Sequence record: OZ035820.1
DNA length: 40,708 nt
Reading direction: 5' to 3' (one strand)
Source of the DNA: Przondovirus NAN33P2
The position numbers and the translations under genes are program-made. Each line of letters starts with the position of its first letter. Position 1 is the stretch's first letter. Below the pieces are notes generated by a model, which was not told the DNA's origin, ran no database searches, and saw nothing but the letters and a program-made list of their open reading frames with translations. Of this stretch, positions 291 to 21,012 are shown piece by piece.

Positions 291-325
291 ACTCAAGGTA
301 CTACTATATGTAGTGCCTTTATGGA
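291..325 (+). promoter_or_regulatory. RNase III-type processing hairpin (R18.5-like)
   Basis: ACTCAAGG...hairpin...CCTTTATGG element between gene 18 and 18.5; one of five copies of a conserved family; resembles recalled T7 R0.3 (ACTCAAGGG...CCCTTTATGA). Confidence 0.55.
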
Positions 326-383
326 TGTCATTGCACTACGCTAGGCGTTCCTACGTGAAATCTGAGAAACAACGGGAGGCATT

Positions 384-830
384 ATGCTGGAGTTCACAAA
401 GAGAATCGTCCCGTATCTTGTGGCTATCATGGTGTTTGCCTTCGGGTGGCACTTGGGGACACAGTCTACGGACGCCAAATGGAAGGAGGAAGTACAGAAT
501 GAGTACGTTAAGAAGCAAACGGCTAGAGCTGAAACTCAGAAAGCGATTGACGCAGTATCGGCTAAGTACCAAGCAGACCTTGAGGGGCTGGAGGGCAGCA
601 CTGATAGGATTATTGCTGATTTGCGTAGCGACAATAAGCGGCTGCGCATCAAAGTCAAACCTACCAGTGTCGCCGCAGGACCAGACGGTCGATGCCTCAT
701 TGATGGTTCCGTCGAACTACACGAAGCAACTGCTCGAAGTCTTATCGCAATAACCCAGAAGGCTGACCTCAAAGAGAAGGCCCTACAGGACACAATTCGT
801 AAGCTGCAAGGGAAAGGAGGTGAACATTGA
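384..830 (+). CDS. gp18.5: i-spanin (Rz-like lysis protein)
   Basis: 148 aa; N-terminal TM helix ([15 protein letters not shown]) then coiled-coil; strong similarity to recalled T7 gp18.5 (MLEF...DAKWK...[10 protein letters not shown]). Confidence 0.85.
499..753 (+). CDS. gp18.7: o-spanin (Rz1-like outer-membrane lipoprotein), embedded in +1 frame within 18.5
   Basis: 84-aa ORF wholly inside gene 18.5 in another frame; GGAGGAAG RBS; signal-like hydrophobic stretch ending in lipobox-like ISGC; typical embedded Rz1 architecture. Exact start uncertain. Confidence 0.6.
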   Translation: MSTLRSKRLELKLRKRLTQYRLSTKQTLRGWRAALIGLLLICVATISGCASKSNLPVSPQDQTVDASLMVPSNYTKQLLEVLSQ

Positions 831-2584
831 GTAACTCTCAGCAAGCCAAGAACGCCTTAATCATTGCGCAACTGAAGGGTGACTTTGTCGCCTTTCTCTT
901 CGTGCTCTGGAAGGCCCTGAACCTGCCGGAACCAACCAAGTGTCAAATCGACATGGCCAAGTGTCTGGCAGACCCAAAGAACAAGAAGTTTATCCTTCAG
1001 GCTTTCCGTGGTATCGGGAAGTCGTTCATCACGTGTGCGTTCGTAGTGTGGACCCTATGGCGTGACCCTCAGTTAAAGATACTGATTGTCTCAGCCTCGA
1101 AGGAACGTGCGGACGCTAACTCCATCTTCATCAAGAACATCATCGACTTGTTGCCTTTCCTGAGTGAGCTTAAGCCTCGCCCCGGTCAGCGTGACTCCGT
1201 GATTAGCTTCGATGTAGGCCCTGCCAAGCCAGACCACAGCCCGTCAGTTAAGTCTGTGGGTATTACGGGTCAGCTTACTGGTAGCCGTGCCGATATCATC
1301 ATTGCGGATGACGTGGAGATTCCCGGTAACTCTGCAACACAAGGTGCCCGAGAGAAACTCTGGACGTTGGTTCAGGAGTTCGCAGCACTGTTGAAACCTC
1401 TGCCGACTAGCCGTGTTATCTATCTGGGTACCCCTCAGACCGAGATGACGCTCTACAAGGAACTTGAGGACAACCGTGGGTACTCGACGATTATCTGGCC
1501 TGCACAGTATCCTCGCTCCAAAGAGGAAGACCTGTACTATGGCGACCGTCTGGCCCCAATGCTTCGTAGTGAGTACGATGAGGACAAAGAGGGTCTCAGC
1601 AGTCAACCTACTGACCCGGTTCGATTTGACTCCATGGACCTTCAGGAACGTGAGGTGGAATACGGCAAGGCTGGCTATACTCTCCAGTTCATGCTCAACC
1701 CGAACCTCAGTGACGCCGAGAAGTACCCGCTACGCCTCCGTGACGCTATCGTGTGCGGTCTACAGGCGGACAAGGCCCCAATGCATTACCAGTGGTTGCC
1801 GAACCGTCAGAACCGCAATGAGGAGCTTCCTAACGTGGGCATGAAGGGTGACGAGATTTACTCCTTCCATACAGCCTCCAGTAACACTGGTGCGTATCAG
1901 GGTAAGATTCTGGTCATTGACCCAAGTGGTCGCGGTAAGGATGAAACTGGCTGGTGCGTGCTGTACACCCTCAACGGTTACATCTACTTGATGGACGCTG
2001 GCGGTACCCGTGGTTACGAAGAGAAGTCCCTTGAGTTCCTCGCTAAGAAAGCCAAACAGTGGCAGGTGCAGACTGTGGTCTTCGAGAGTAACTTCGGTGA
2101 CGGTATGTTCGGTAACGTGTTCCAGCCTGTGCTCCTGAAGCATCATCCGGCACAACTCGAGGAGATTCGTGCTCGTGGCATGAAAGAGGTACGTATCTGC
2201 GATACCCTTGAGCCTGTACTGGCAAGTCACCGCTTGGTCATCCGTGATGAGGTTATCCGTCAGGACTACCAGACTGCACGCGATGCGGACGGTAAGCACG
2301 CCCTTAAGTACAGCCTGTTCTACCAGATGACCCGTATGAGTCGTGAGAAGGGCGCTGTGGCACACGATGACCGACTTGATGCACTAGCATTGGGTGTCGA
2401 GTTCCTACGTGCTACGATGCAGCAGGACGCTGTGAAGATAGAGTCTGAGGTACTTCTGGAGTTCTTGGAGCACCACATGGAGAAGCCCCTTAGTAACGTC
2501 TCCCAGTTCAAGGCCACCAGCAGCAACGGTGTGGACATCCGCTGGGAAGACGACGGGGATGATTCTATGTTCATCGCATGGTGA
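827..2584 (+). CDS. gp19: Terminase large subunit (DNA maturation protein B)
   Basis: 585 aa; near-identical in long stretches to recalled T7 gp19 ([37 protein letters not shown]). Start appears to be TTG at 827, 5 nt after GGAGGT and overlapping the 18.5 stop. Confidence 0.9.
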
Positions 2585-2664
2585 TTATGCAGGGATTGTG
2601 CATAAGGATTCATTAGGCCACGGAAGGCCACTTCAGGAAAACTTCAGGCATAACAGACACTTGG

Positions 2665-2687
2665 AATTAGGTAGCACTATAGGGAGA
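2665..2687 (+). promoter_or_regulatory. Phage RNAP promoter (phiOR-like)
   Basis: AATTAGGTAGCACTATAGGGAGA, 23-mer collinear with the T7 promoter -17..+6; position after gene 19 matches T7 phiOR. Confidence 0.75.
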
Positions 2688-2828
2688 GACCCCTAAAGAC
2701 TTACTATAAGACTACTTAAAGTTTCATTCATATAGTTATGCACTATAGGTCTCCTCTATGAGAGAGGGTAGTAATGATAATATCACCCTCTAACTATAAG
2801 ACACTAAGAGCTAACACAAGGAGGACCT

Positions 2829-2978: not shown

Positions 2979-3161
2979 GGTCTTCCTTACGCGCTAGGGA
3001 TTCCGTAGTGATGCTTATCAGCATACACCACTCCATCCCTCTACAGTCAATACTTAAAGTTAACCTTAGGTGATTCGCTGGTCTACCTACGGGTCTATGC
3101 AATGACCTGAGGACTACCTGAGGTTACCTTTAAGAATTTTACATAAAGTTCTGAGTGTACA

Positions 3162-3342
3162 TCTCACAGTTTAAACTTTTGGTTATCCCCCCGGTACCCT
3201 CTCAGTCCACCCAAAGTAACCATGGGGCCACCCTAAACCTTCGGTTTAACCTTAGGTCGGTACCTTGGGAATCCTGAGGTGATACTATATGTTGTGGTGA
3301 GGGTGACTCAATGACGCTATATGTTGATGCCTCTGTGTCCCT
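3162..3342 (+). repeat. Terminal repeat region of the linear virion DNA (one copy in this circular assembly); boundaries approximate
   Basis: Begins with TCTCACAGT, the recalled first bases of the T7 genome, and ends at CCTCTGTGTCCCT, resembling the recalled end of the T7 terminal repeat (CTCTGTGTCCCT); flanked on both sides by short-repeat arrays. Confidence 0.45.
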
Positions 3343-3576
3343 ATCTGTTGGGCCTCTTTAAGTATACACCTGAGGTTAGACCTGAGGTCATCCATTGACG
3401 CTATGCCTTAGGTTAACCGTTTGACTAACGTTTAGCAGTGACTGTTAGTAGGTCACATAGAGTGATCAATCAAGTATCTCGTTTAGCAGTCCCTGAGACA
3501 CTGAGAGCGGGACAATATGGGTATCAGTGAGTCATTACTATAAGGGCTATCGGTGGTCAGTGTCAACACCGTAATC

Positions 3577-3841: not shown

Positions 3842-4009
3842 GCACCACAGATTCACCGCTCTTTAACAATATGGATTAGTCAAAGCTGATATGTACACCA
3901 TGACATTAGTGTTTAACTAGTGGTTACATTCAGGTCTCTGGCAAGGTACGTCCTGTCACCCTGAGAGTAGCCACCTTGATAACCACTAATCAACTGAAGG
4001 ATATACATT

Positions 4010-4477
4010 ATGATTTTCACGAAAGAACCAGCCAACAAAGTATTCGTATTCGTTACCGCATACCGTGGCCATGAGTCGCAGGAAGTAAACGAGAAGATGC
4101 TCAAGGGTCTCATTAAGACCATTCGCACCTATCCGGGTGCATACGGCAACATTCGTGACGAGAACGTGCAAGGCTGCTTTAAGGAAGATGGTATGCCTGC
4201 GGCAACACAAGAACGCACGCTCAAGGTCGAATGTACTGAGAAGCAAGCCGCAGAGTTGACATGGCTGGCCTGTAAGACCTACTCGCAGGATGCCGTGCTG
4301 GTGGTGAACTCACAGACCCATACAGCAGCTCTGTGGTCTATTGAGGATGTAGGCGAGTATCCACAGGTCTACCCACGCTTGAAAGAGGTGTCCTTAGGTG
4401 GCACGCTGCAACAAGTGGATGCACCAAAGGGAGAATGCTATTCAGTCATCAACGGGCAGTACTGGGAGGTGGTGTAA
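4010..4477 (+). CDS. gp0.3: S-adenosylmethionine lyase / SAMase (anti-restriction), T3 gene 0.3 type
   Basis: 155 aa; first early gene; N-terminus MIFTKEPAN and internal QTHTA match recalled T3 SAMase; RBS GAAGGA. Confidence 0.7.
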   Translation: MIFTKEPANKVFVFVTAYRGHESQEVNEKMLKGLIKTIRTYPGAYGNIRDENVQGCFKEDGMPAATQERTLKVECTEKQAAELTWLACKTYSQDAVLVVNSQTHTAALWSIEDVGEYPQVYPRLKEVSLGGTLQQVDAPKGECYSVINGQYWEVV

Positions 4478-4677
4478 TGGGTAAGCTGCTAGCGATATCC
4501 AAAATAACAGGGCAATGCACTGTAACACTACGGGAGTACTCACACGGTGCAATGGGGAGTACCTACACTGTGCGGCACGGTAAGCAGGTAAAACACTGGG
4601 TCAACGAGAGACTAGCTCAGGAGGATTATCAATCATGCGTCATACATCAATCAACTTGCGCTGGGTGGAATGACTGA
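4477..4677 (+). CDS. Hypothetical small early protein
   Basis: 66-aa ORF from ATG overlapping the 0.3 stop (TAATGG) after GGAGG; part of a chain of overlapping small early ORFs; no recognised homology. Confidence 0.35.
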   Translation: MGKLLAISKITGQCTVTLREYSHGAMGSTYTVRHGKQVKHWVNERLAQEDYQSCVIHQSTCAGWND

Positions 4678-4823
4678 TGAAACACTACGGACTCACTCAG
4701 GCAGACATAAGGCACTATCGCTGGTTGTTATCCTTAGGTAGACCGCACGATTACTTAATGATGCACCTCGCGCAAACTTATCGCACACATAAGGTAATGT
4801 ATGATAACCCTGTTCGTAATTAG
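4677..4823 (+). CDS. Hypothetical small early protein
   Basis: 48-aa ORF starting at ATGA overlap with the preceding ORF; basic protein; no recognised homology. Confidence 0.25.
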   Translation: MKHYGLTQADIRHYRWLLSLGRPHDYLMMHLAQTYRTHKVMYDNPVRN

Positions 4824-4998: not shown

Positions 4999-5161
4999 CA
5001 ACCGAGTCTACCGGGACAAGCATGGGATCGTCATAGTGCACATCATAAGGTACGATTGCTACGTCTATGCAGACACCTGCGAATCATTGCCGTACTACCC
5101 AAGCGCTAACACTCGCAAGACGTGGGAGCGCATTGGCACTAACCTGAAGTTTACCGATTGA
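4982..5161 (+). CDS. Hypothetical small early protein
   Basis: 59-aa ORF from internal ATG of the six-frame ORF 4946..5161, overlapping the end of the preceding ORF; start uncertain. Confidence 0.25.
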   Translation: MLQRINNRVYRDKHGIVIVHIIRYDCYVYADTCESLPYYPSANTRKTWERIGTNLKFTD

Positions 5162-5196
5162 CACACTCACATCAACCACCATAAGGAAACAATCAA

Positions 5197-6210
5197 ATGA
5201 ACTACACCGACATGCAAGAACGCTTAGACGTCATCCGCAACCTACCAATCTGTGAACTCGACAAGCGCCAGCCGCTGCTGGTAGCACTCATCGCTGACAT
5301 TGTGAACTATGAGACGTCCGACGGTGACGATACGGATAGCGATTGGGGTCTGGAACGTCAGGACTATTGGCAAACCCTGAAGATTAAGGCCAAAGACGCT
5401 GGGTTCAACCTACTAGGCAATGGTCACTTCAGCGCAGCGTTTAAGCACGAGCTGCTACCGGGTAGGGTCATTAAGGTTGGCTTTAAGAAAGAGGACTCAG
5501 GGGCCGCCTACGTGGCTTTCTGCCGGATGCACCAAGGTAGGGTAGGGATTCCTAACGTCTATCACGTAGCGCGTCACGCTGGCTGCTACACGGTGGTGCT
5601 AGACGAGCTTGAGCCTTGTCAACGCTTCGACAACGAGACGCACGAGCATTACGCAGACCTTGCTAACTACTTTGTGGAGAACTCTGGTGCAGAGCTGGGC
5701 GATGTTGACGGTGCAGAGAAGGAATTACACTTCGTCGAGACGTGCCAAATGATTAACAAGTTCTTCCACGGGATTGCATCCTTTGACATGCACAGCGGTA
5801 ACATTATGTTCACCAAAGACGGCAAGCCAGTAATAACCGACCCGGTGTCATTCTCGAAGGACCGCGAACGTGAGCCTTTCTCACTGGAACCTAATGTACT
5901 GATTGCAGAGATTGAGCAGATAGCGCACGACAAGATGATTGAACGCTGTAAGCGCAACAAGGCAAAGCGTGACCCGAACGGGGAGCTGCGCATCGCACGT
6001 CGTAAGGCAAATAAGGAGCGCAGAGCACGTCGTAAGGCACACGCTATGTGGCGTAAGGAGCGCGAACGGATTAACGCCGAGGCCCTAAAGGTTGACCTTG
6101 CGAAAGTCGAGGAGCGGGTACTGGCATGGCAGGTGGGACCCGGCCTAGCGATACAGCAGGGAAAGCCTTTACCTATCGATAACTATCTTCAGGGTAGACT
6201 CATGGGCTAA
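5197..6210 (+). CDS. gp0.7: Serine/threonine protein kinase (host shut-off), gene 0.7-like
   Basis: 337 aa; immediately upstream of gene 1; kinase-like N-terminal half and basic C-terminal tail (RRKANKERRARRKAH); assignment by position and size relative to T7/T3 gp0.7. Confidence 0.65.
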   Translation: MNYTDMQERLDVIRNLPICELDKRQPLLVALIADIVNYETSDGDDTDSDWGLERQDYWQTLKIKAKDAGFNLLGNGHFSAAFKHELLPGRVIKVGFKKEDSGAAYVAFCRMHQGRVGIPNVYHVARHAGCYTVVLDELEPCQRFDNETHEHYADLANYFVENSGAELGDVDGAEKELHFVETCQMINKFFHGIASFDMHSGNIMFTKDGKPVITDPVSFSKDREREPFSLEPNVLIAEIEQIAHDKMIERCKRNKAKRDPNGELRIARRKANKERRARRKAHAMWRKERERINAEALKVDLAKVEERVLAWQVGPGLAIQQGKPLPIDNYLQGRLMG

Positions 6211-6279
6211 CAAGGTGTATCTTCGGTGTCTCTGATACGAGGCACCCATAGATAAACTTTATCCACAAAGAGGCACACA

Positions 6280-9000
6280 ATGAACGCATTAAACATTGCA
6301 CGTAATGACTTCTCAGAGATTGAACTGGCCGCTATCCCGTATAATATCCTCAGCGAGCACTATGGGGACAAGCTGGCACGCGAGCAGCTGGCACTGGAGC
6401 ATGAAGCGTACGAGCTGGGCGAGCAGCGTTTCCTGAAGATGCTGGAACGTCAGGTGAAAGCTGGTGAGTTCGCTGACAACGTGGCTGCTAAGCCGCTGGT
6501 CCTAACGTTGCACCCGCAGCTGACCAAGCGTATTGACGACTGGAAGGAGGAGCAGGCAAACGCACGCGGTAAGAAACCTCGCGCATACTACCCGATTACG
6601 CACGGTGTGTCCTCAGAGTTGGCCCTCAGTATGGGCGCTGAGGTTCTCAAAGAGAAGCGTGGAGTGTCCAGTGAGGCAATCGCACTGCTCACCATTAAGG
6701 TGGTCTTAGGGACGCTCACAGACGCCGCAAAGGCCACAATCCAGCAGGTGTCCTCACAGTTAGGCAAGGCCCTTGAGGATGAGGCCCGCTTCGGTCGTAT
6801 CCGTGAGCAGGAAGCCGCATACTTCAAGAAGAACGTAGCGGACCAGCTGGACAAGCGCGTAGGCCACGTGTACAAGAAGGCTTTCATGCAGGTCGTCGAG
6901 GCCGATATGATATCCAAAGGGATGCTGGGCGGGGACAACTGGGCGAGCTGGAAAACTGACGAGCAGATGCACGTAGGGACCAAGCTGCTGGAGCTACTTA
7001 TCGAGGGAACTGGTCTGGTGGAAATGACCAAGAACAAGATGGCCGATGGCTCCGATGATGTGACCAGTATGCAGATGGTCCAGCTGGCTCCGGCCTTTGT
7101 GGAACTCCTGAGCAAGCGAGCGGGCGCACTCGCAGGTATCAGCCCGATGCACCAACCGTGCGTAGTCCCTCCGAAACCTTGGGTGGAGACCGTAGGCGGT
7201 GGCTACTGGTCAGTCGGTCGTCGCCCGCTGGCACTGGTTCGTACCCACTCCAAGAAGGCACTGCGCCGCTACGCAGACGTGCACATGCCAGAGGTATACA
7301 AAGCGGTAAACCTCGCGCAAAACACACCGTGGAAGGTGAACAAGAAGGTGTTGGCGGTAGTCAATGAGATTGTTAACTGGAAGCACTGCCCGGTGGCTGA
7401 CGTTCCAGCGATTGAACGTGAAGAGTTACCACCGCGCCCGGACGATATCGACACCAACGAGGTGGCACGTAAGGCATGGCGCAAGGAGGCCGCGGCGGTC
7501 TACCGTAAGGACAAGGCCCGCCAGTCTCGCCGTTTGTCGATGGAGTTCATGGTCGCACAGGCCAACAAGTTCGCTAACCACAAGGCCATCTGGTTCCCGT
7601 ATAACATGGACTGGCGCGGGCGTGTGTACGCTGTGAGCATGTTCAACCCGCAGGGTAACGACATGACCAAGGGTATGCTGACGCTGGCCAAGGGTAAGCC
7701 GATTGGTCTAGACGGGTTCTACTGGCTGAAGATTCATGGTGCAAACTGTGCAGGCGTCGACAAGGTTCCCTTCCCTGAGCGCATCAAGTTCATCGAAGAG
7801 AACGAGGGCAACATTCTGGCGAGTGCAGCTGACCCGCTGAATAACACTTGGTGGACACAGCAAGATTCACCGTTCTGCTTCTTAGCGTTCTGCTTCGAGT
7901 ACGCAGGCGTTAAACACCACGGCCTGAATTACAACTGCTCGCTGCCTCTGGCGTTCGATGGATCATGCTCTGGGATTCAGCACTTCAGCGCAATGCTCCG
8001 CGATTCCATCGGTGGCCGTGCGGTAAACCTGCTGCCATCTGATACCGTGCAGGATATCTACAAGATTGTGGCCGATAAGGTCAACGAGGTGCTCCAGCAG
8101 CACGCTGTCAACGGGTCTCAAACGGTGGTCGAGCAGATTGCCGACAAGGAGACTGGTGAGTTCCGCGAGAAGGTAACGCTGGGTGAGTCCGTACTTGCTG
8201 CGCAGTGGCTGCAATATGGTGTTACCCGCAAGGTGACTAAGCGTTCGGTAATGACGTTGGCGTATGGTTCCAAAGAGTTTGGCTTCCGCCAGCAAGTTCT
8301 TGAGGATACCATTCAGCCAGCTATTGACAACGGCGAGGGCTTGATGTTTACGCACCCTAACCAAGCGGCTGGCTATATGGCTAAGCTGATTTGGGACGCT
8401 GTGACCGTGACCGTAGTGGCCGCTGTCGAGGCAATGAATTGGCTGAAGTCTGCCGCTAAACTGCTGGCCGCTGAAGTCAAGGACAAGAAGACCAAAGAGG
8501 TGCTCCGTAAGCGCTGCGCAATCCACTGGGTAACACCAGACGGCTTCCCGGTGTGGCAGGAATACCACAAGCGAGATCAAGCGCGCCTGAAGCTGACGTT
8601 CTTGGGTCAGGCCAACGTGTTCATGACGTACAACAAAGGGGAAGCCAAAGAGATTGACGCACATAAGCAGGAGTCAGGAATCGCTCCTAACTTTGTGCAC
8701 TCACAGGATGGTAGTCACCTGCGCATGACCGTAGTGCACGCCAACGAGGTCTACGGGATTGACTCCTTCGCGCTCATTCATGACTCCTTCGGGACCATTC
8801 CAGCAGACGCTGGGAATCTCTTTAAGGCAGTCCGTGAGACGATGGTCAAGACCTACGAGGATAACGATGTAATCGCTGACTTTTATGACCAGTTCGCTGA
8901 CCAGCTGCACGAGTCTCAACTGGACAAAATGCCTGCTGTCCCGGCCAAAGGTGACCTGAATCTGCGCGATATCTTAGAGTCTGACTTCGCGTTCGCCTAA
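6280..9000 (+). CDS. gp1: Single-subunit DNA-dependent RNA polymerase
   Basis: 906 aa; collinear with recalled T7 RNAP (MN..NIA.NDFS.IELAAIP, RGKKP, PFCFLAFCFEYAG, HDSFGT, final FAFA); about 20 extra residues in the N-terminal domain; length equals my recollection for K11 RNAP. Confidence 0.95.
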   Translation: MNALNIARNDFSEIELAAIPYNILSEHYGDKLAREQLALEHEAYELGEQRFLKMLERQVKAGEFADNVAAKPLVLTLHPQLTKRIDDWKEEQANARGKKPRAYYPITHGVSSELALSMGAEVLKEKRGVSSEAIALLTIKVVLGTLTDAAKATIQQVSSQLGKALEDEARFGRIREQEAAYFKKNVADQLDKRVGHVYKKAFMQVVEADMISKGMLGGDNWASWKTDEQMHVGTKLLELLIEGTGLVEMTKNKMADGSDDVTSMQMVQLAPAFVELLSKRAGALAGISPMHQPCVVPPKPWVETVGGGYWSVGRRPLALVRTHSKKALRRYADVHMPEVYKAVNLAQNTPWKVNKKVLAVVNEIVNWKHCPVADVPAIEREELPPRPDDIDTNEVARKAWRKEAAAVYRKDKARQSRRLSMEFMVAQANKFANHKAIWFPYNMDWRGRVYAVSMFNPQGNDMTKGMLTLAKGKPIGLDGFYWLKIHGANCAGVDKVPFPERIKFIEENEGNILASAADPLNNTWWTQQDSPFCFLAFCFEYAGVKHHGLNYNCSLPLAFDGSCSGIQHFSAMLRDSIGGRAVNLLPSDTVQDIYKIVADKVNEVLQQHAVNGSQTVVEQIADKETGEFREKVTLGESVLAAQWLQYGVTRKVTKRSVMTLAYGSKEFGFRQQVLEDTIQPAIDNGEGLMFTHPNQAAGYMAKLIWDAVTVTVVAAVEAMNWLKSAAKLLAAEVKDKKTKEVLRKRCAIHWVTPDGFPVWQEYHKRDQARLKLTFLGQANVFMTYNKGEAKEIDAHKQESGIAPNFVHSQDGSHLRMTVVHANEVYGIDSFALIHDSFGTIPADAGNLFKAVRETMVKTYEDNDVIADFYDQFADQLHESQLDKMPAVPAKGDLNLRDILESDFAFA

Positions 9001-9010: not shown

Positions 9011-9033
9011 AATTAGGTAGCACTATAGGGAAC
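9011..9033 (+). promoter_or_regulatory. Phage RNAP promoter (phi1.1A-like)
   Basis: AATTAGGTAGCACTATAGGGAAC immediately after gene 1. Confidence 0.7.
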
Positions 9034-9098
9034 CTTCGAATGGCCGAGGGTTCCATTACTTAAAGTCTTAACTTAAAGAATACTTAAAGAGGCACACC

Positions 9099-9662
9099 AT
9101 GACTTACTCAATCGTTGTAACCATCTTGTTAATCGTATTAATCATCCTGTTAGTAAGGGCCGTCACACGACTCGGTGCCTGCGAGTACGCCCTTGAGAAG
9201 CAAGCCAAGAGCAACGAGGAGTACACAGAAGGCTTGCACGATAAGGTCTACCGCCTGTTTGCCGATAAGGTATCACTCAATAAGCAGGTGCGGTGGTTAG
9301 AGAGCGAGCTTGAACACGAGAAGCAGAAGGTACGCGATGTGAACGAACTACGGGAACACCAGCGGGGCCGCATGAAGTTCCTCCGCAAGTCCCTCAAGGA
9401 AGCACAAGATGAGCTGATGATGGTCTCAGGCCTGATTCACGTTAAGTTCACCGCTGTGTTACCAGACGGTACCCACTCCAAGACGCTCTTTAAGCTAGGG
9501 CTTGGCCCGTGTGGTCTCCACGTTAAGTCCCTCCGATGGACAGAGCTGGAGGACCGCTACCTGATAGACCAGCTGTGCACCAATGGCGAGCGTAAGCAGT
9601 TCGTCTACTACAAGAGCGAAGTAGTAGGACGCATCGAGTTCCGTCACGGTAAGTCTGAATAA
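9099..9662 (+). CDS. Hypothetical membrane-anchored coiled-coil protein (no T7 counterpart recognised)
   Basis: 187-aa ORF with AAGAGG RBS; N-terminal TM helix (IVVTILLIVLIILLV), central charged coiled-coil-like region, about 70-aa C-terminal domain; sits between gene 1 and gene 1.1 and is bracketed by two phage promoters. Confidence 0.6.
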   Translation: MTYSIVVTILLIVLIILLVRAVTRLGACEYALEKQAKSNEEYTEGLHDKVYRLFADKVSLNKQVRWLESELEHEKQKVRDVNELREHQRGRMKFLRKSLKEAQDELMMVSGLIHVKFTAVLPDGTHSKTLFKLGLGPCGLHVKSLRWTELEDRYLIDQLCTNGERKQFVYYKSEVVGRIEFRHGKSE

Positions 9663-9680
9663 GGTAGCACTATAGGAACA
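9658..9680 (+). promoter_or_regulatory. Phage RNAP promoter variant (phi1.1B-like)
   Basis: AATAAGGTAGCACTATAGGAACA; weaker variant overlapping the stop of the 187-aa ORF. Confidence 0.5.
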
Positions 9681-9681
9681 T

Positions 9682-9712
9682 ACTCAAGGTCATCGTTCGG
9701 TGGCCTTCATGA
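9682..9712 (+). promoter_or_regulatory. RNase III-type processing hairpin (R1.1-like)
   Basis: ACTCAAGGTCATCGTTCGGTGGCCTTCATGA; member of the conserved hairpin family. Confidence 0.5.
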
Positions 9713-9745
9713 ATGTCCCTTACTATCACAATCAGGAGCAACACC

Positions 9746-10186: not shown

Positions 10187-10207
10187 TTAGGTAGCACTAT
10201 AGGCAGA
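10185..10207 (+). promoter_or_regulatory. Phage RNAP promoter (phi1.3-like)
   Basis: GATTAGGTAGCACTATAGGCAGA upstream of the ligase gene. Confidence 0.6.
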
Positions 10208-10240
10208 CTCAAGGTCATCGGATTCCGGTGGCCTTTATGA
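10207..10240 (+). promoter_or_regulatory. RNase III-type processing hairpin (R1.3-like)
   Basis: ACTCAAGGTCATCGGATTCCGGTGGCCTTTATGA with a 9-bp stem (GGTCATCGG / CCGGTGGCC). Confidence 0.55.
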
Positions 10241-14232: not shown

Positions 14233-14255
14233 CATTAAGTAGCACTACAGGGAGA
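14233..14255 (+). promoter_or_regulatory. Phage RNAP promoter variant (phi3.8-like)
   Basis: CATTAAGTAGCACTACAGGGAGA after gene 3.5. Confidence 0.55.
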
Positions 14256-14294
14256 CAATCGCGTTTCCCTGTTGTCGCTTTAGGAGATTACTTT

Positions 14295-16297: not shown

Positions 16298-16317
16298 TCA
16301 ACCTAAGGAGAACCATC

Positions 16318-16527
16318 ATGTTTAAACTTATCGAAGCATTAGGCCGTCTGGTCATCGCGCTGTACGTACGTGAAGCCAAGGCACTGGACAAAGCGTCCAA
16401 GGTGGAAGCAGAAGCAGCCGCTAAGCTGGCTAAGGCCGCCGACAAGGCACGTCAGGCATCTCTGGATGCAACCGCAGAGGCAGCGAAAGTTGCACTTAAA
16501 GCTCAGAAACTTAAGGAGTTCTTCTAA
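16318..16527 (+). CDS. gp4.3: Gene 4.3-like protein
   Basis: 69 aa from ATG after AAGGAG; MFKLIEALGRLV... and ending ...KLKEFF resemble recalled T7 gp4.3 (MFKLIKKLGQLL...; ...SKFFE). Confidence 0.6.
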   Translation: MFKLIEALGRLVIALYVREAKALDKASKVEAEAAAKLAKAADKARQASLDATAEAAKVALKAQKLKEFF

Positions 16528-16838
16528 TGACTACCAAAGCTAAATTCCCCGGCAACACCATCCAGCTGTCCGACACTGTAGACCAGTGGGGCCGCAAGGT
16601 TCACATCAACGTTCGCAACGACAAGGTGACTCTGGTCTACCGCTGGAAGGCTAAGAGCGATAACCGTGCGCACACTCAGCGTGTGACCCTCGACGACACA
16701 CAGGCAGCTCGCTTACTGGCATCCGTAGCCGTAGCCGCTACTGTAGCTGTTGGTGAGGACAAGGTCCGTGAGGCTATCCTGAGTAAAGAGGTAGGCTCAA
16801 CGGCAACTCGACTGGCCGAAGCGTCAGAAGCCAAGTGA
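16527..16838 (+). CDS. Gene 4.5-like hypothetical protein
   Basis: 103-aa ORF; ATG overlaps the 4.3 stop (TAATG); assigned by position. Confidence 0.5.
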   Translation: MTTKAKFPGNTIQLSDTVDQWGRKVHINVRNDKVTLVYRWKAKSDNRAHTQRVTLDDTQAARLLASVAVAATVAVGEDKVREAILSKEVGSTATRLAEASEAK

Positions 16839-16841
16839 TAA

Positions 16842-16877
16842 ACTCAAGGTCATTACTATATGTAGTGGCCTTTATGA
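16842..16877 (+). promoter_or_regulatory. RNase III-type processing hairpin (R4.7-like)
   Basis: ACTCAAGGTCATTACTATATGTAGTGGCCTTTATGA; nearly identical to the copy at 291-325. Confidence 0.55.
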
Positions 16878-16907
16878 TTATCATACACAACATATTGAGG
16901 AGAGGTC

Positions 16908-17360
16908 ATGAAAGTTTGTTCGAAATGTGGCAATGGTAAGCCGCTCTCTGAGTTCGGTAAAGCATCCCGCATGAAGGACGGCTTGAGGACTTGGTGTAAA
17001 GAGTGTGTGAGGAGGGACAACAACGATCGGTACCACAAACACGATGCGGAGCGAAGGGCTGAGCACAGGTGGCGGTCACGTAAGTCGCAGATAAAGAAGT
17101 ACGGTATCACAGTGGAGCAGTACGAGGCCATGTGGGAATCGCAGGGTGGGAGGTGTAAGATATGTGGAGACGCTGTAGCGGTGCACTCAGAAAACCGTCA
17201 CGAAGTCGCGTGTATTGACCATTGTCACGAGACCTTAAAGGTTAGAGGTCTTTTGTGCTGGCACTGTAACATCGGGCTTGGTAAGTTCTTTGATAACACA
17301 GAGCGCCTTAAGGCTGCTATAGAATATCTGGAGGTACACAGTGTTAGTGATGGACATTGA
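16908..17360 (+). CDS. HNH endonuclease, Endonuclease VII-like
   Basis: 150 aa; N-terminal CxxC...CxxC zinc knuckle (CSKCGNGKP...CKEC) and C-terminal HNH core (CIDHCHETLKVRGLLCWHCNIGLG); GAGGAG RBS; 3' end overlaps the gene 5 start. Confidence 0.7.
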   Translation: MKVCSKCGNGKPLSEFGKASRMKDGLRTWCKECVRRDNNDRYHKHDAERRAEHRWRSRKSQIKKYGITVEQYEAMWESQGGRCKICGDAVAVHSENRHEVACIDHCHETLKVRGLLCWHCNIGLGKFFDNTERLKAAIEYLEVHSVSDGH

Positions 17361-19455
17361 AGCAAACAACCTTTTAGAGAACGCTACGCAGTTTCACTGT
17401 GGCGTGCTTTATGATTACGCAACAGGTGACTACACATCTTATAGACCTTGGGACTTCTCTGCGTACTTGGACGCCATGGAGGATGAAGTCGCCCGTGGAG
17501 GCCTTATCGTGGGGCACAACATCACCAAGTATGATGCCCCAGTGTTAACCAAGCTGGCCAAGCTCCAGTTAAACCGAGAGTTCCACCTGCCGCGTGAGAA
17601 CGTAGTGGACACGTTGGTGCTCAGTCGTTTGCTGTTTGCGAACATTAAGGACACCGACATGACCCTGCTGCGCTCCGGGAAGTTACCCGGTAAGCGCTTC
17701 GGGTCTCACGCTCTGGAGGCGTGGGGTTACCGCTTAGGCGAGATGAAGGGTGAGTACAAGGACGACTTCAAGAAGCTCCTTGAGGAACAGGGAGAGGATT
17801 ACGTCGATGGTGCTGAGTGGATTAGCTTCAACGAGCCGATGATGGCGTATAACGTTCAGGACGTTGTGGTGACCAAGGCTCTCCTTGAGAAGCTGCTGAG
17901 CGACAAGCACTACTTCCCAGCTGGTATAGACTTCACGGATGTCGGCGAGACAACCTTCTGGTCAGAGTCCTGCGAGGCCGTCTGGTTGGAACACCGAGCC
18001 GCTTGGTTACTCGCTAAGCAGGAGCGTAACGGATTCCCGTTCAACACCAAGGCCATCGAGGAACTCTACGTTGAACTCGCTGGTCGTCGTTCTGAACTCC
18101 TTCAGACACTCACCGACACTTTCGGAACTTGGTATCAGCCTAAGGGTGGCACTGAGTTATTCCTGCACCCGCGAACTGGGAAGCCTCTGGGGAAATACCC
18201 GCGAGTGAAGTACCCGAAGCAGGGTGCCATCTACAAGAAACCCAAGAACAAAGCTCAGCGTGAGGGTCGTGAACCATGCGAGCTGGACACTCGGGATTAC
18301 GTAGAGGGCGCTCCATATACACCAGTAGAGCACGTTGTGTTCAACCCTAGTAGCCGAGACCACATTGCGCTCAAGCTGAAGGAAGCCGGATGGGTACCGA
18401 CAGAGTTCACCGATAAAGGTGCACCTAAGGTAGACGACGAGGTCCTTGAGCATGTGCGTGTGGAAGACCCTGAGAAGCAGCGCTGCATTGACCTCATCAA
18501 AGAGTACCTGATGATACAGAAGCGTATCGGTCAGGCGGCTGAGGGCGACAAAGCGTGGCTACGTTACGTTCAAGAGGATGGTAAAATCCATGGTTCAGTC
18601 AATCCTAATGGTGCCGTTACGGGCCGAGCGACTCACAGCTTCCCGAACCTCGGACAAGTGCCGGGTGTTCGAAGTCCTTACGGCGAGCCTTGCAGGGCTG
18701 CTTTTGGTGCTGAGCATCACCTTGACGGCCTCACTGGTTTACCTTGGGTACAAGCTGGTATCGACGCCTCCGGTCTGGAACTGCGGTGTCTCGCACACTT
18801 CATGTCCAAGTACGACGGGGGAGCTTATGCAGACGTTATTCTTAACGGGGACATCCACACGGTAAACCAGCAGGCCGCTGAGTTGCCGACTCGTGACAAC
18901 GCGAAGACCTTTATCTACGGATTCCTTTACGGAGCAGGCGACGAGAAGATTGGACAAATCGTCGGAGCAGGTAAGGAACGCGGAAAGGAACTCAAGAAGA
19001 AATTCCTTGAGAACACCCCAGCAATCGCAGCGTTGCGTGAAGGAATCCAGCAGACCCTCGTCGAGTCATCCAGATGGGTCGCAGGAGAGCAGAAGGTCAA
19101 GTGGAAACGACGCTGGATTAAGGGACTGGATGGAAGAAAGGTACACGTTCGGTCACCACATGCCGCGCTCAACACGTTGCTTCAATCAGCGGGTGCGCTC
19201 ATTTGTAAGCTGTGGATTGTCGAGACTGAAGAGTTGCTCCTCAAGGCTGGCTTGAAGCACGGCTGGGATGGTGACTTTGCGTACATGGCGTGGGTCCACG
19301 ATGAAATCCAAGTGGCCTGCCGGACACCTGAGATTGCACAGCAGGTGATTGACATTGCGCAACAAGCTATGCGCAACGTTGGGGAACACTTCAAGTTCCG
19401 TTGCCGTCTGGATACAGAAGGTAAGATGGGTCCGAACTGGGCCGTATGTCACTAA
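17341..19455 (+). CDS. gp5: DNA polymerase (family A) with 3'-5' exonuclease
   Basis: 704 aa, same length as T7 gp5 and collinear with it (DIEANNLLE, FHCGV.YDY, thioredoxin-binding region, C-terminal KMGPNWA.CH); start is GTG 17341, 6 nt after GGAGG. Confidence 0.95.
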   Translation: MLVMDIEANNLLENATQFHCGVLYDYATGDYTSYRPWDFSAYLDAMEDEVARGGLIVGHNITKYDAPVLTKLAKLQLNREFHLPRENVVDTLVLSRLLFANIKDTDMTLLRSGKLPGKRFGSHALEAWGYRLGEMKGEYKDDFKKLLEEQGEDYVDGAEWISFNEPMMAYNVQDVVVTKALLEKLLSDKHYFPAGIDFTDVGETTFWSESCEAVWLEHRAAWLLAKQERNGFPFNTKAIEELYVELAGRRSELLQTLTDTFGTWYQPKGGTELFLHPRTGKPLGKYPRVKYPKQGAIYKKPKNKAQREGREPCELDTRDYVEGAPYTPVEHVVFNPSSRDHIALKLKEAGWVPTEFTDKGAPKVDDEVLEHVRVEDPEKQRCIDLIKEYLMIQKRIGQAAEGDKAWLRYVQEDGKIHGSVNPNGAVTGRATHSFPNLGQVPGVRSPYGEPCRAAFGAEHHLDGLTGLPWVQAGIDASGLELRCLAHFMSKYDGGAYADVILNGDIHTVNQQAAELPTRDNAKTFIYGFLYGAGDEKIGQIVGAGKERGKELKKKFLENTPAIAALREGIQQTLVESSRWVAGEQKVKWKRRWIKGLDGRKVHVRSPHAALNTLLQSAGALICKLWIVETEELLLKAGLKHGWDGDFAYMAWVHDEIQVACRTPEIAQQVIDIAQQAMRNVGEHFKFRCRLDTEGKMGPNWAVCH

Positions 19456-19473
19456 TAATACAGGAGATTTATC

Positions 19474-19761
19474 ATGGCTATTACCAAGCGTGTATGCGTA
19501 AGTTTTGATGCTAAGTTGGTACTGTCTACAGAAGATGTCGAGAAGATTACTAAAGACCTAGTGGTAGCCTCCAAGGGTTTCCTTGAGGGTAAGCCGACAG
19601 ATGGTCGCAAGCTGGCTGGTATCGAGGCCGCTGTAACTGATGGGCCGGAAGCAGCAATCGAGCTGGCACTGAAGGGCATCATCACCAAAGAGCTTAAGGC
19701 TTTGCTGAACGAGATGAAGTTCAACTCCTTCGGTAACTTCCGAGTGGGGTTCAAGCAATGA
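19474..19761 (+). CDS. gp5.5: Gene 5.5-like protein
   Basis: 95-aa ORF with GGAG RBS directly after gene 5; assigned by position and size (T7 gp5.5 is 99 aa). Confidence 0.5.
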   Translation: MAITKRVCVSFDAKLVLSTEDVEKITKDLVVASKGFLEGKPTDGRKLAGIEAAVTDGPEAAIELALKGIITKELKALLNEMKFNSFGNFRVGFKQ

Positions 19762-19967
19762 GCGAGTACCTCAAAGTTCTGGCGGCCCTCAAGGGCTGCC
19801 CTAAGTCCTTCCAGTCGAACTACGTGCGTAACAACGCTGCGTTAGTCGCTGAGGCTGCGAGCCGTGGTCACATTTCGTGCCTGACCATGAGTGGTCGTAA
19901 TGGTGGCGCTTGGGAAATTACCAGTGCCGGAGTGAAATTCCTTAAGACCCATGGAGGTTGCCTGTGA
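19758..19967 (+). CDS. gp5.7: Gene 5.7 protein
   Basis: 69 aa; close to recalled T7 gp5.7 (MS.YLKVL...CPK.FQSNYVRNNA.LVAEAASRGHISCLT.SGRNGGAWEIT). Confidence 0.8.
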   Translation: MSEYLKVLAALKGCPKSFQSNYVRNNAALVAEAASRGHISCLTMSGRNGGAWEITSAGVKFLKTHGGCL

Positions 19968-20869
19968 GTAAGCACACATTGTTATCCTTCAGCGACTACC
20001 GGGCAACCCAGAAGATTGCCAAAGGCGTCCTTGTGATGGATGGTGACTGGCTGGTATTCCAAGCCATGAGTGCCGCTGAGTTCGATGCCTCGTGGGAGGA
20101 GGAGATTTGGCACCGTTGCTGTGACCACGCCAAGGCCCGAGAGATTCTGGAGAACTCCATCGAGTCCTACAAGGGCCGCAAGAAGGCATGGAAGAATGCT
20201 GACGTTGTCCTAGCGTTCACCGACCGTGTCAACTGGCGCAAGCTGCTGGTGGACCCAACGTACAAAGAGAACCGTGCAGTCGTCAAGAAACCTGTGGGTT
20301 ACTTCGAGTTCCTTGAGTACGTCTTCGAGACCTACACGTGCGTCCTTGAGCCTCAGCTCGAAGGCGATGACGTTATGGGCATCATCGGGTCTAACCCTCT
20401 CGTATACAACTACGAGAAGGCCGTACTGGTCTCCTGTGACAAGGACTTTAAGACCATCCCGGATTGTGACTTCCTGTGGTGTACGACTGGTAACATCCTC
20501 GTGCAGACTCAGGAGACAGCCGACTACTGGCATCTCTTCCAGACTATCAAGGGTGACATCACCGATGGTTACGGTGGGATTCCCGGATGGGGTGATACCG
20601 CTGAGGACTTCCTCAAGGAACCCTTCATTGTGGAGCCTGTAACGTCCGTCCTGAAGTCCGGTAAGAACAAGGGCCAAGAGGTAACCAAGTGGGTGAAACG
20701 CGCTCCTGAGCCGGGAGAGACGCTCTGGGACTGCATTAAGTCCATTGGTGCCAAAGCAGGGATGACAGAAGAGGAAGTAATCAAGCAGGGACAGATGGCT
20801 CGCATCCTCCGCTCTGATGAGTACAACATCGAGACTGGGGAGATTACTCTATGGCAACCGGGCAGCTGA
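19964..20869 (+). CDS. gp6: 5'-3' exonuclease
   Basis: About 301 aa; long identical runs to recalled T7 gp6 (VMDGDWLVFQAMSAAEFDASWEEEIWHRCCDHAKAR). Start placed at GTG 19964 (5 nt after GGAGG); the six-frame ORF lists TTG 19958. Confidence 0.9.
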   Translation: MSKHTLLSFSDYRATQKIAKGVLVMDGDWLVFQAMSAAEFDASWEEEIWHRCCDHAKAREILENSIESYKGRKKAWKNADVVLAFTDRVNWRKLLVDPTYKENRAVVKKPVGYFEFLEYVFETYTCVLEPQLEGDDVMGIIGSNPLVYNYEKAVLVSCDKDFKTIPDCDFLWCTTGNILVQTQETADYWHLFQTIKGDITDGYGGIPGWGDTAEDFLKEPFIVEPVTSVLKSGKNKGQEVTKWVKRAPEPGETLWDCIKSIGAKAGMTEEEVIKQGQMARILRSDEYNIETGEITLWQPGS

Positions 20870-20961
20870 TTCTTATCGTCCTGACCATGGGCTTAATCGC
20901 TCGTGGTCTCTGGATGTTGGCCTTGATTATCAAGCAGATAGTCGAGCACAAAGCAGAGTGA
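20851..20961 (+). CDS. Small hydrophobic protein, gene 6.3-like
   Basis: 36-aa ORF (MATGQLILIVLTMGLIARGLWMLALIIKQIVEHKAE) overlapping the gene 6 stop in another frame; T7 gene 6.3 is 37 aa. Confidence 0.3.
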   Translation: MATGQLILIVLTMGLIARGLWMLALIIKQIVEHKAE

Positions 20962-20964
20962 TAA

Positions 20965-21012
20965 ACTCATGGGCACTAATTAGGTAGCACTATAGGGAAG
21001 TGCCCATTATGA
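20965..21012 (+). promoter_or_regulatory. RNase III-type hairpin (R6.5-like) enclosing a promoter
   Basis: 9-bp stem ATGGGCACT / AGTGCCCAT flanked by the family's ACTCA and TTATGA, with the promoter in the loop. Confidence 0.5.
20978..21000 (+). promoter_or_regulatory. Phage RNAP promoter (phi6.5-like)
   Basis: AATTAGGTAGCACTATAGGGAAG. Confidence 0.7.

Follow-up and report, generated by a model that had tools for sequence, protein, structure and literature searches.

Genomic context of the hairpins

The stretch of DNA analysed here (the window; sequence record OZ035820.1, 40,708 nt) is the circularly permuted genome of a K11/KP32-like Klebsiella phage (Przondovirus NAN33P2); many Klebsiella phages are 91–94% identical to it, and its gene order agrees with those of K11 and T7. 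An earlier note on this DNA had placed five copies of a conserved element at 291–325, 9682–9712, 10207–10240, 16842–16877 and 20965–21012, and all of these coordinates were confirmed. The corresponding hairpins are all intergenic, at the junctions 18/18.5, 1(1.05)/1.1, 1.2/1.3, 4.5/4.7 and 6.3/6.5, and are listed with their parts and adjoining promoters:

282–333, + strand: R18.5-type hairpin between gp18 (stop 285–287, within the lower stem) and gp18.5 (ATG 384); lower stem 282–290/325–333, internal loop 291–294 and 320–324, upper stem 295–304/310–319; predicted cut 322/323
9663–9676: core of promoter phi1.1, +1 at about 9675
9674–9720, + strand: R1.1-type hairpin, starting at about +1 of phi1.1, upstream of gp1.1 (ATG 9746); internal loop 9682–9685 and 9708–9712, upper stem 9686–9694/9699–9707; predicted cut 9710/9711
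10190–10203: core of promoter phi1.3, +1 at about 10202
10199–10248, + strand: R1.3-type hairpin directly after phi1.3, upstream of the DNA ligase gene (ATG 10287); internal loop 10207–10210 and 10236–10240, upper stem 10211–10221/10225–10235; predicted cut 10238/10239
16835–16884, + strand: R4.7-type hairpin between gp4.5 (stop 16836–16838, within the lower stem) and gp4.7 (ATG 16908); internal loop 16842–16845 and 16873–16877, upper stem 16846–16856/16862–16872; predicted cut 16875/16876
20956–21021, + strand: R6.5-type hairpin between gp6.3 (probable, 20851–20961) and gp6.5 (ATG 21048); lower stem 20956–20964/21013–21021, upper stem 20969–20977/20999–21007; predicted cut 21010/21011
20978–21000, + strand: phi6.5 phage-RNAP promoter (-17 to +6, +1 at about 20995), filling the apical loop of the R6.5-type hairpin

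Secondary structure and covariation

Folding of each element, as the earlier note had suggested, gave the same centroid structure on the sense strand in all five cases: a lower stem of 7–9 bp, an internal loop of 4 nt opposite 5 nt, and an upper stem of 9–11 bp. Fold z-scores on this strand range from -2.5 to -4.6 (R18.5-type -3.9, R1.1-type -2.5, R1.3-type -4.6, R4.7-type -3.5, R6.5-type -3.4), and the antisense strands fold poorly (z +0.4 to -1.7). The model RNase III substrate T7 R1.1 is built in the same way, being described as 60 nt long, with an asymmetric internal loop (4 nt/5 nt) and cleavage both in vivo and in vitro (PMC6121014). Each of the five hairpins aligns with the T7 site at the corresponding gene junction (R18.5, R1.1, R1.3, R4.7 and R6.5, respectively), and T7 R6.5 has the same design as its counterpart here.

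A covariance model seeded with the five window sites and seven T7 sites, with T3 left out, found exactly these five sites in the window, all on the + strand, at 59.9 (R18.5-type), 61 (R1.1-type), 60.6 (R1.3-type), 65.2 (R4.7-type) and 63.2 bits (R6.5-type), scores that are high partly by construction because the five sequences belong to the seed; the next match scored 16.8 bits. T3 provided an independent check, its record (AJ318471) annotating stem-loops as 'RNase III recognition site' at R0.3, R0.5, R1, R1.1, R1.3, R3.8, R4.7, R6.5, R13 and R18.5. The model matches coincide with these annotated sites, seven of which were matched at full length (R0.3, R0.5, R1.1, R1.3, R4.7, R6.5 and R18.5; 33–61 bits), with a weak partial match inside R1. 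Rfam, searched at the gathering score, gave no matches across the whole window and has, on this evidence, no model matching the five hairpins. Intrinsic (rho-independent) termination, which calls for a G+C-rich hairpin and a U run, was rejected as an identity for the five hairpins, in which this combination does not occur.

The hairpins recur in related phages. The R18.5-type hairpin is present in 77 of 80 relatives, the R4.7-type hairpin in 78 of 80, with the DNA polymerase gene about 0.1–1.0 kb (mostly about 490 nt) downstream, and the R6.5-type hairpin in 72; the R1.1-type hairpin is syntenic in relatives, and the R1.3-type hairpin was also found in them. All 278 matches in the 80 relatives lie on the gene strand, at four syntenic positions. 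In the alignment of 12 sites from the window and T7, pairing is intact in 96.9% of pair cells and 12 of the 16 pairs show changes on both sides; for 110 sites from 32 genomes the values are 95.4% and 15 of 16, and the 77 R18.5 orthologues have 99% of pair cells paired, and over the three alignments 10–15 of the 16 pairs have changed on both sides. The covariation score of the 110-site alignment was reached by none of 500 shuffles, and slid controls were 26–53% paired. At one upper-stem pair most sequences (73 of 96 distinct ones) have a U-G wobble, which on the opposite strand would read as a mismatch of A with C. Compensatory changes keep the base pairing across >100 related genomes. The presence of the sites, their fold, strand specificity, synteny, homology and covariation are all direct observations.

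Sequence motif and similarity among copies

The earlier note had described blocks of ACTCA(A/T)GG and CCTT(T/C)ATGA flanking a GC-rich stem of 7–9 bp in all five copies. The exact pattern ACTCAWGG-N(10-40)-CCTTYATGA occurs at 9682–9712, 10207–10240 and 16842–16877 (three matches, against none in 100 shuffles), but copies 1 and 5 deviate from it: copy 1 (291–324) ends in CCTTTATGG, and copy 5 (20965–21012) reads ACTCATGG...CCATTATGA, its two deviations being both sides of one base pair (A-U to U-A). These blocks make up the internal loop together with the bottom of the upper stem. The description of the stem did not stand, since the predicted upper stems are 9–11 bp long with only 4–6 G-C pairs and up to 2 G-U pairs, and the elements, at 32–49% GC compared with 52.9% in the window, are not GC-rich. 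Seven motif columns, five of the 5' side (C, T, A, G, G) and two of the 3' side (C, T), are invariant among the 12 aligned window and T7 sites. With the slash marking the cut, the T7 R-site positions and the window copies have ACTCAAGG...CCTTTAT/GA in common at each junction, and the RNA motif around the internal loop (ACUCAAGG ... CCUUUAU/GAUU) is common to both sets. Copies 1 and 4 are almost identical, as had been claimed (33 of 37 columns agree in the alignment; one is a mismatch and three are one-base gaps).

Additional and diverged sites

The five hairpins are real members of one family, but the family is larger than the five originally described, and further sites, together with the gene of a kinase homologue, were identified as follows:

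3905–3990, + strand: probable diverged R0.3-type site with this architecture, immediately before gene 0.3 (ATG 4010); lower stem 3905–3915/3980–3990, internal loop 3916–3919 (ACUA) and 3975–3979 (CUUGA), upper stem 3920–3927/3967–3974 carrying a 39-nt structured apical domain
5197–6210, + strand: gp0.7 protein kinase homologue (50% identity to T7 gp0.7, E 4e-119)
6212–6260, + strand: probable R1-type site between gp0.7 and the RNA polymerase gene (ATG 6280)
14247–14272, + strand: R3.8-type hairpin at the transcript start from the promoter at 14238–14251, upstream of the primase/helicase gene
29020–29063, + strand: R13-type 19-bp hairpin, the 3' arm of which is the phi13 promoter (core 29045–29058, +1 at about 29057)

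Upstream of gene 0.3 no family member had been noted, and there is indeed no copy of the strict motif there; the diverged structural copy at 3905–3990 nevertheless occupies this position (16.8 bits, E 0.095; fold z -4.45). It is conserved among relatives, where one upper-stem pair shows compensatory replacement of U-A by C-G. Przondovirus relatives have versions of 57–62, 94 and 117 nt at the R0.3 position, and the inserted apical domains of 39–62 nt may have a function of their own. The R1-type site (z -4.7) has a bulged lower stem, a 2-nt/3-nt internal loop and an 8-bp upper stem; the T7 R1 region adopts the same fold, T3 R1 is annotated at the same junction, and the hairpin recurs in the roughly 50 relatives examined, with variation in the loop and top pairs. 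The R3.8-type hairpin (z -3.1) reads GGGAGACAATCGCGTTTCCC in the window compared with GGGAGACCACAGCGGTTTCCC in T7 R3.8. The R13-type hairpin (z -6.1) also has a T7 counterpart and is a second hairpin that wraps a promoter. Model search and folding detected no canonical R0.5- or R0.7-type sites in the window.

Identity of the hairpins and alternative explanations

The five hairpins very probably belong to the RNase III processing signals of the T7 group (Studiervirinae) and correspond, in this Klebsiella phage, to R18.5, R1.1, R1.3, R4.7 and R6.5 of T7 and T3. The earlier note had proposed host RNase III processing by analogy with T7 R sites, and the proposal is upheld by junction-for-junction homology with T7, the T3 annotation, the fold with its 4-nt/5-nt loop, and covariation; its support comes from homology, beyond analogy alone. 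As the hairpins match the T7/T3 sites, including the one that encloses a promoter, they are an unremarkable and previously understood feature of such phages. Literature searches returned no transcript-end or cleavage data for NAN33P2, any Przondovirus or Klebsiella RNase III; we infer cleavage by the Klebsiella enzyme, the exact bonds, and effects on mRNA stability and translation.

The hairpins could instead be intercistronic RNA structures acting mainly without RNase III, as 3'-exonuclease barriers or insulators, or as RNase E/G targets cut at the A/U-rich 3' loop side. Covariation proves a selected sense-strand structure and leaves the enzyme that reads it unspecified, the conserved 3' loop UAUGAUU is single-stranded and A/U-rich, and T7 grows independently of RNase III (PMC6938266), so that the selective value of the sites is subtle. 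However, RNase III cuts the homologous T7 sites, its classical substrates, both in cells and in vitro (PMC6121014; PMC1540722), the window sites retain the T7 helix lengths and 4/5-nt loop, and the T3 homologues are annotated as RNase III sites, which makes this explanation quite improbable. Action as DNA palindromes (hairpins or cruciforms) in replication, in module recombination or as structures sensed by host defences would fit the T7 primary origin, which lies around phi1.1A/B and R1.1, the T3 record, where the primary origin adjoins phi1.05/R1.1, and a reported effect that is independent of orientation and is reduced when mutations disrupt the stem (PMC11707656). Yet only one of the five sites is near the origin region, sensing by a defence system is a cost and not a function, and G-U wobble conservation, the far weaker antisense folds and the restriction of every one of the 278 matches to the transcribed strand argue for selection on RNA; action at the DNA level is therefore highly improbable.

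Stable intergenic hairpins on the transcribed strand might also terminate transcription or make the host or phage RNA polymerase pause, but no U-tract follows the stems (longest run 3 U), and a terminator scan called none of the five hairpins while calling the true Tphi-like terminator at 25979–26016. The genes that follow R4.7 and R18.5 lack a nearby promoter and must be reached by read-through, and we regard termination or pausing as exceedingly improbable. The near-identity of the apical parts of copies 1 and 4 suggests sequence exchange between sites, as might be expected of a functionless repeat family arising by duplication or recombination; such an origin has a negligible probability given that the same five junctions are retained from T7 and T3 to Przondovirus, with neighbouring genes at 58–100% protein identity, and is contradicted by the many compensatory changes that keep 95–99% of pair cells paired.

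Proposed processing by RNase III

As RNase III processing signals, the elements would act in rightward polycistronic transcripts, each presenting a lower stem of 7–9 bp and an upper stem of 9–11 bp that starts AAGG/CCUU, separated by an asymmetric internal loop in which ACUC (4 nt) of the 5' strand faces UAUGA or a variant (5 nt) of the 3' strand. This helix of roughly two turns would be bound by host RNase III and cut at a single bond on the 3' side, because the internal loop gives only one strand access to the catalytic site; loops of this kind restrict the enzyme to one bond, and protective hairpins are left at the 3' end (PMC1540722; PMC3867540). Cutting is predicted after UAU, at the bonds given in the first list, and would leave the upstream mRNA with a stable 3' hairpin directly past the stop codon of the preceding gene, and the downstream mRNA with a 5' monophosphate start about 32–61 nt ahead of the next start codon. 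The predicted bonds depend on the T7 cleavage coordinates reportedly determined by Dunn and Studier in 1983; the T7 records examined carry no R-site features. The coordinates so reported all fall at the same motif position in the T7 sequence, and the departure of T7 R1.3 from the consensus (CCTTAGTCA/T) means that the cut position is not invariant within the family. The T7 kinase is reported to increase RNase III activity during infection (PMC4858673), and by analogy the gp0.7 homologue may be a trans-acting accessory of processing in NAN33P2.

Promoters and hairpins

The phi6.5-like promoter reported in the loop of the copy at 20965 is present, its core GGTAGCACTATAGG lying at 20983–20996 inside copy 5 and exactly matching a promoter core that occurs nine times in the window; K11 phi6.5 is annotated at the homologous place. 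A promoter inside the R6.5 loop is not peculiar to NAN33P2, as T7, T3 and every relative examined are alike in this respect. Transcripts initiated at phi6.5 (about 20995) would contain the 3' arm only, with both arms present only in read-through RNAs, and should escape cutting. The R1.1- and R1.3-type hairpins begin at about +1 of phi1.1 and phi1.3, so that locally started RNAs contain the whole site or the greater part of it (of the 8 nt in the 5' strand of the lower stem, 7 for R1.1 and 5 for R1.3).

In all relatives examined the hairpin arms co-evolve with lineage-specific promoter sequences, and the 5' arm of the R13-type hairpin changes in step with promoter type. It is possible, though rather unlikely, that promoters within processing hairpins (phi6.5 in the R6.5 loop, phi13 as the R13 3' arm) represent a selected switch and not an accident of crowding. 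Such a switch would give mRNAs different fates, read-through RNAs being cut and carrying a 5' monophosphate and locally initiated RNAs keeping a 5' triphosphate and escaping the cut. These palindromes would, in addition, render the phage liable to detection by Lamassu-type defences that sense DNA structure.

Comparison with T7, T3, K11 and other RNase III targets

NAN33P2 shares with T7 the motif ACUCAAGG ... CCUUUAUGA, the fold of two stems separated by a 4-nt/5-nt internal loop, the gene junctions, phi1.1 and phi1.3 immediately upstream of R1.1 and R1.3, and phi6.5 between the R6.5 arms. It differs from T7 in its host (Klebsiella), in the K11-type sequence of the R6.5-loop promoter, in the resemblance of the apical part of R4.7 to that of R18.5, and in R1.3, which has canonical CCUUUAUGA in the window and CCUUAGUCA in T7. 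Unlike T7, the window is without canonical R0.5 and R0.7, and its R0.3 counterpart is diverged with a 39-nt apical domain.

The ten-site layout of T3 is similar: R1.1 and R1.3 abut promoters, R3.8 is annotated as overlapping phi3.8, the R6.5 stem-loop (17135–17206) encloses phi6.5 (17160–17182), R13 (25443–25480) encloses phi13, and gene 0.3 is a SAM hydrolase, as annotated in close relatives of the window. T3 has kept canonical R0.3 and R0.5 (56.9 and 60.9 bits), whereas in the window R0.5 is absent and R0.3 is represented only by the diverged site of 16.8 bits.

Other RNase III targets (rRNA operon stems, lambda N-leader and sib) are likewise double-helical over about two turns and are processed by the same host enzyme. 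They are typically fully paired and cut on both strands. In contrast, the T7-type internal loop confines the cut to one strand and leaves a 3' hairpin (PMC1540722).

K11, the Przondovirus type species (EU734173), has the five sites in near-identical sequence at the same junctions, although its record annotates promoters and no RNase III sites. It has a short R0.3-type site (29.5 bits) plus a long version upstream of an extra ORF, whereas the window has the long version only.

Genomic setting

The first 12 kb of the window shows 91-94% identity (megablast) to hundreds of Klebsiella Przondovirus phages of the K11/KP32 group. The ORF map is collinear with the annotated K11 genome and with T7, the window being a circularly permuted version of the K11/T7 gene order:

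30-287, gp18
384-830, gp18.5
827-2584, gp19, followed by the genome-end region
4010-4477, gene 0.3
5197-6210, gp0.7
6280-9000, RNA polymerase
9099-9662, gp1.05
10287-11393, ligase
16527-16838, gp4.5
16908-17360, gp4.7
17341-19455, DNA polymerase
19958-20869, gp6
20851-20961, probable gp6.3
21048-21293, gp6.5

The physical left genome end probably lies at ~3165 (TCTCACAGTTTAAAC...; T7 has TCTCACAGTG... at its left end), in a region (3100-3400) with flanking short CCTGAGG-type repeats that recall the arrays beside the T7 terminal repeat. The phage promoter core GGTAGCACTATAGG has nine exact matches in the window, all on the + strand. Exactly at the +1 of the phi1.05 transcript is a 10-bp hairpin (9029-9054; GGAACCUUCG...CGAGGGUUCC), a 5′ leader stem-loop resembling those of T7 phi10 and phi3.8. 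A strong terminator-like hairpin with a 16-bp stem and a T run (25979-26016), 3′ of the major capsid gene, is the expected Tphi equivalent.

Five hairpins with a common fold

An earlier note, made by reading the sequence alone, had placed five RNase III-type hairpins in the window, and all five were found where it put them; they are listed here with the T7/T3 RNase III sites to which they correspond:

291-325, + strand, copy 1 (R18.5)
9682-9712, + strand, copy 2 (R1.1)
10207-10240, + strand, copy 3 (R1.3)
16842-16877, + strand, copy 4 (R4.7)
20965-21012, + strand, copy 5 (R6.5), with the phi6.5 promoter in its loop

Folded as RNA with their flanks, all five adopt one architecture, in which an internal loop (4 nt/5 nt) separates a 7-9 bp lower stem from a 9-11 bp upper stem capped by an apical loop. 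Sense-strand folds have z-scores of -2.5 to -4.6, while the reverse complements fold far worse (z +0.4 to -1.7) because the helices include G-U pairs. This architecture is the one published for T7 R1.1, whose 60-nt RNA has an asymmetric internal loop of 4 nt/5 nt and is cut by RNase III at a primary site, in vivo as well as in vitro (PMC6121014). Such internal loops confine RNase III to one bond, and protective 3′ hairpins remain (PMC1540722; PMC3867540). The TGA stop codons of gp18 (285-287), gp4.5 (16836-16838), and the probable gp6.3 (20959-20961) fall within the lower stem, so that the processed upstream mRNA would end in a hairpin starting at its own stop codon; these three stops sit in the conserved AGUGAUA 5′ strand of that stem.

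The near-identity of copies 1 and 4 was borne out (33 of 37 aligned columns agree), as was the promoter within copy 5, the core of which (20983-20996) is inside the element. The motifs said to be common to all copies hold strictly in three: the pattern ACTCAWGG-N(10-40)-CCTTYATGA has three matches in the window and none in 100 shuffles, but copies 1 and 5 deviate. Copy 1 ends in CCTTTATGG, and copy 5 reads ACTCATGG...CCATTATGA, its two deviations being partners in a single base pair. Contrary to what had been claimed, the stems are not rich in GC, with only 4-6 G-C among 9-11 pairs, in elements of 32-49% GC (genome, 52.9%). Nor are the motifs boxes that flank a stem: ACUC and UAUGA make up the 5′ and 3′ halves of the internal loop, respectively, and AAGG/CCUU forms the base of the upper stem.

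Covariation

A covariance model was built from a seed alignment of the five window sites and seven T7 sites, with the two-stem structure imposed. In this seed, 96.9% of pair cells are standard, and both sides change in 12 of 16 pairs; slid controls were 34-56% paired. The model gave exactly five matches at 60-65 bits in the window, on the + strand, the next scoring 16.8 bits; since the window sites are in the seed, independent checks carry more weight. In T3, which was outside the seed, seven full-length matches coincide with the annotated R0.3, R0.5, R1.1, R1.3, R4.7, R6.5, and R18.5. Across 80 IMG/VR relatives collected via DNA polymerase (69-97% identity), there were 278 matches, all on the gene strand and at four syntenic positions (R1.1, R1.3, R4.7, and R6.5). 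Among 110 matches taken from 32 diverse genomes, the pair cells are 95.4% paired, and both-side changes occur in 15 of 16 pairs; none of 500 shuffles was as high, and slid controls reached 26-53%. R18.5 is kept in 77 of 80 relatives collected via terminase, with 99% of cells paired.

At one upper-stem position the commonest type is a U-G wobble (73 of 96 distinct sequences), which would be an A-C mismatch if read on the opposite strand; its predominance points to selection on the sense-strand RNA. An Rfam scan of the whole window matched no family, and a clean, broad covariation data set is now available for this classic RNase III substrate class.

Homology with T7, T3, and K11

The T7 records V01146 and NC_001604 have annotated promoters, and no RNase III features were found in them; we therefore checked the T7 sequence at the R-site cleavage coordinates ascribed to Dunn and Studier (1983). 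Eight of these 11 coordinates fall at one motif position, between CCTTTAT and GA or in a motif close to it. R3.8 and R13 do not, being of another hairpin type, nor does R0.7, for which the coordinate used (1951) was wrong: it met no recognisable site and was dropped. Copies 1 to 5 align with T7 R18.5, R1.1, R1.3, R4.7, and R6.5, junction by junction. The T3 record has ten annotated stem-loops termed 'RNase III recognition site', with R1.1 and R1.3 adjoining their promoters and R3.8 overlapping phi3.8. All five sites are also present, almost unchanged, in K11, the record of which marks promoters and none of these sites. Homology, fold, and covariation thus agree with the earlier attribution to host RNase III by likeness to T7, cleavage itself being predicted.

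The R4.7 apex of Przondoviruses (CATTACTATATGTAGTGG; window 16846-16872) is similar to that of R18.5 (TACTACTATATGTAGTG; 295-319), whereas in T7 and T3 the two are unrelated, which suggests sequence exchange between both sites in the Przondovirus lineage. Minus-strand matches to a sigma-70-like consensus (consensus only) lie inside copies 1 and 4 (331 to 303 and 16884 to 16855), and in the T7 record R18.5 contains a minor E. coli promoter named 'E', at 36836.

Proposed processing and alternative functions

Given the structure, conservation, and homology of these elements, the best-supported reading is processing by RNase III in four steps. The coaxial two-stem helix in polycistronic RNA would be bound by host RNase III, and a single bond on the 3′ side of the internal loop would be cut. 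The upstream message would keep a terminal hairpin that starts at its stop codon or immediately beyond it, and the downstream message would be freed with a monophosphate 5′ end ~32-61 nt before the start codon, its ribosome-binding site left free. Klebsiella RNase III is assumed to be conserved with the E. coli enzyme. The gp0.7 kinase of this phage is 50% identical to the T7 kinase, which boosts RNase III activity during infection (PMC4858673).

A terminator reading is excluded: the copies have no U-tract, and a terminator scan called none of the five while calling Tphi (25979-26016). T7-type RNase III-site palindromes are reported to trigger the DdmABC/Lamassu defence and can be sensed by it as DNA (PMC11707656), possibly a cost to the phage, and site positions would thereby bear on host range prediction; a purely DNA-level (or antisense) function is nevertheless unlikely, since the wobble pairs speak against it, as does the asymmetry between strands. 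That the structure is read by another nuclease, or acts as an exonuclease barrier alone, is improbable, as it goes against what experiments have shown directly for the homologous T7 sites.

The T7 RNase III site type is textbook knowledge from the 1970s to 1983, the site layout is already annotated for T3, and the current understanding of the T7 group is unchanged. What is added is the presence of the sites in Przondovirus, where they are unmarked in the public record (K11 checked); our literature searches returned no relevant report on such sites in Przondovirus or in T7-like phages of Klebsiella. Phages of this genus are in wide use as candidates for Klebsiella therapy. Better annotation is the practical gain, and the sites, which would set mature mRNA ends, should be respected in engineering or refactoring of these genomes.

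Hairpins around promoters

Features of the two promoter-wrapping hairpins are:

~20978-21000, + strand, phi6.5 promoter (+1 at ~20995)
20999-21007, 3′ arm of R6.5
29020-29063, R13-type hairpin (19 bp, z -6.1), its 3′ arm being the phi13 promoter

Each of the 30 distinct R6.5 sequences recovered has, as read from the sequences, a phage promoter core between its arms; the promoter matches the lineage (T7-type, T3-type, K11-type, or the window's type), and the arms vary with compensation (AAGGUCCCU/AGGGGCCUU, AUGGGCACU/AGUGCCCAU, AAGGCUCUC/GAGGGAGCCUU, and ACUCUAGGCA/UGCCUAUA). T7 R6.5 reads ACTCAAGGTCCCTAAATTAATACGACTCACTATAGGGAGATAGGGGCCTTTAC up to the junction and GA after it, so phi6.5 sits between the arms in T7 too, and in T3 the annotated R6.5 (17135-17206) surrounds phi6.5 (17160-17182), as R13 does phi13. 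The promoter-in-loop layout is therefore a conserved group trait, already annotated, and not peculiar to this genome; the R6.5/phi6.5 pair has been discussed previously (PMC6938266). The 5′ arm of the R13-type hairpin differs correspondingly in sequence, keeping the match, in relatives with another promoter sequence.

The 5′ arm is missing from RNAs started at phi6.5, which therefore cannot form R6.5; R6.5 and R13 would form in read-through RNAs only. R1.1 and R1.3 begin at about the +1 of their promoters, so that the site is wholly or mostly included in locally started RNAs (7/8 and 5/8 nt of the lower-stem 5′ strand, respectively).

Further hairpins and probable sites

Besides the R13-type hairpin, three others had escaped the earlier note:

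3905-3990, probable diverged R0.3-type site
6212-6260, probable R1-type site at the gp0.7/gene 1 junction (z -4.7)
14247-14272, R3.8-type hairpin at the transcript start of the promoter at 14238

In the R1-type hairpin the lower stem is bulged, the internal loop small, and the upper stem 8 bp long, a fold like that of T7 R1; the hairpin recurs in the ~50 relatives examined, with variation in loops and top pairs. A search of the early region for R0.5- and R0.7-type sites was negative: the stretches 4665-4805 and 5150-5200 have no model match, and neither folds more stably than its shuffles (z +0.8 and +0.5). The former, ~120 nt between early ORFs with no family site, corresponds to the part of the early region where T7 and T3 have R0.5.

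The claim that the family is absent upstream of gene 0.3 holds for the strict motif, but the model's sixth match (3901-3994) is there, and the R0.3 position is probably held by a diverged family member. This site ends ~20 nt before the start codon and folds with z -4.45: a lower stem is followed by an internal loop (ACUA/CUUGA) and by an upper stem of 8 bp, on which sits a structured apical domain of 39 nt. The counterparts in Przondovirus relatives measure 57-62, 94, or 117 nt, K11 having both long and short ones, and compensatory replacement of U-A by C-G is seen in the upper stem; pair counts were read by eye because MAFFT misaligned the 5′ halves of long and short versions. This diverged variant bearing apical insertions is a probable further addition to the known sites.

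Large apical-loop insertions also occur in otherwise intact sites of some relatives: ~75 nt in an R1.1 (L071:2337-2473, IMG/VR), while in two others the R0.3-type site has gained a 23-nt hairpin (L093:704-820 and L120:827-943). Such insertions are tolerated by the hairpin family, or perhaps exploited.
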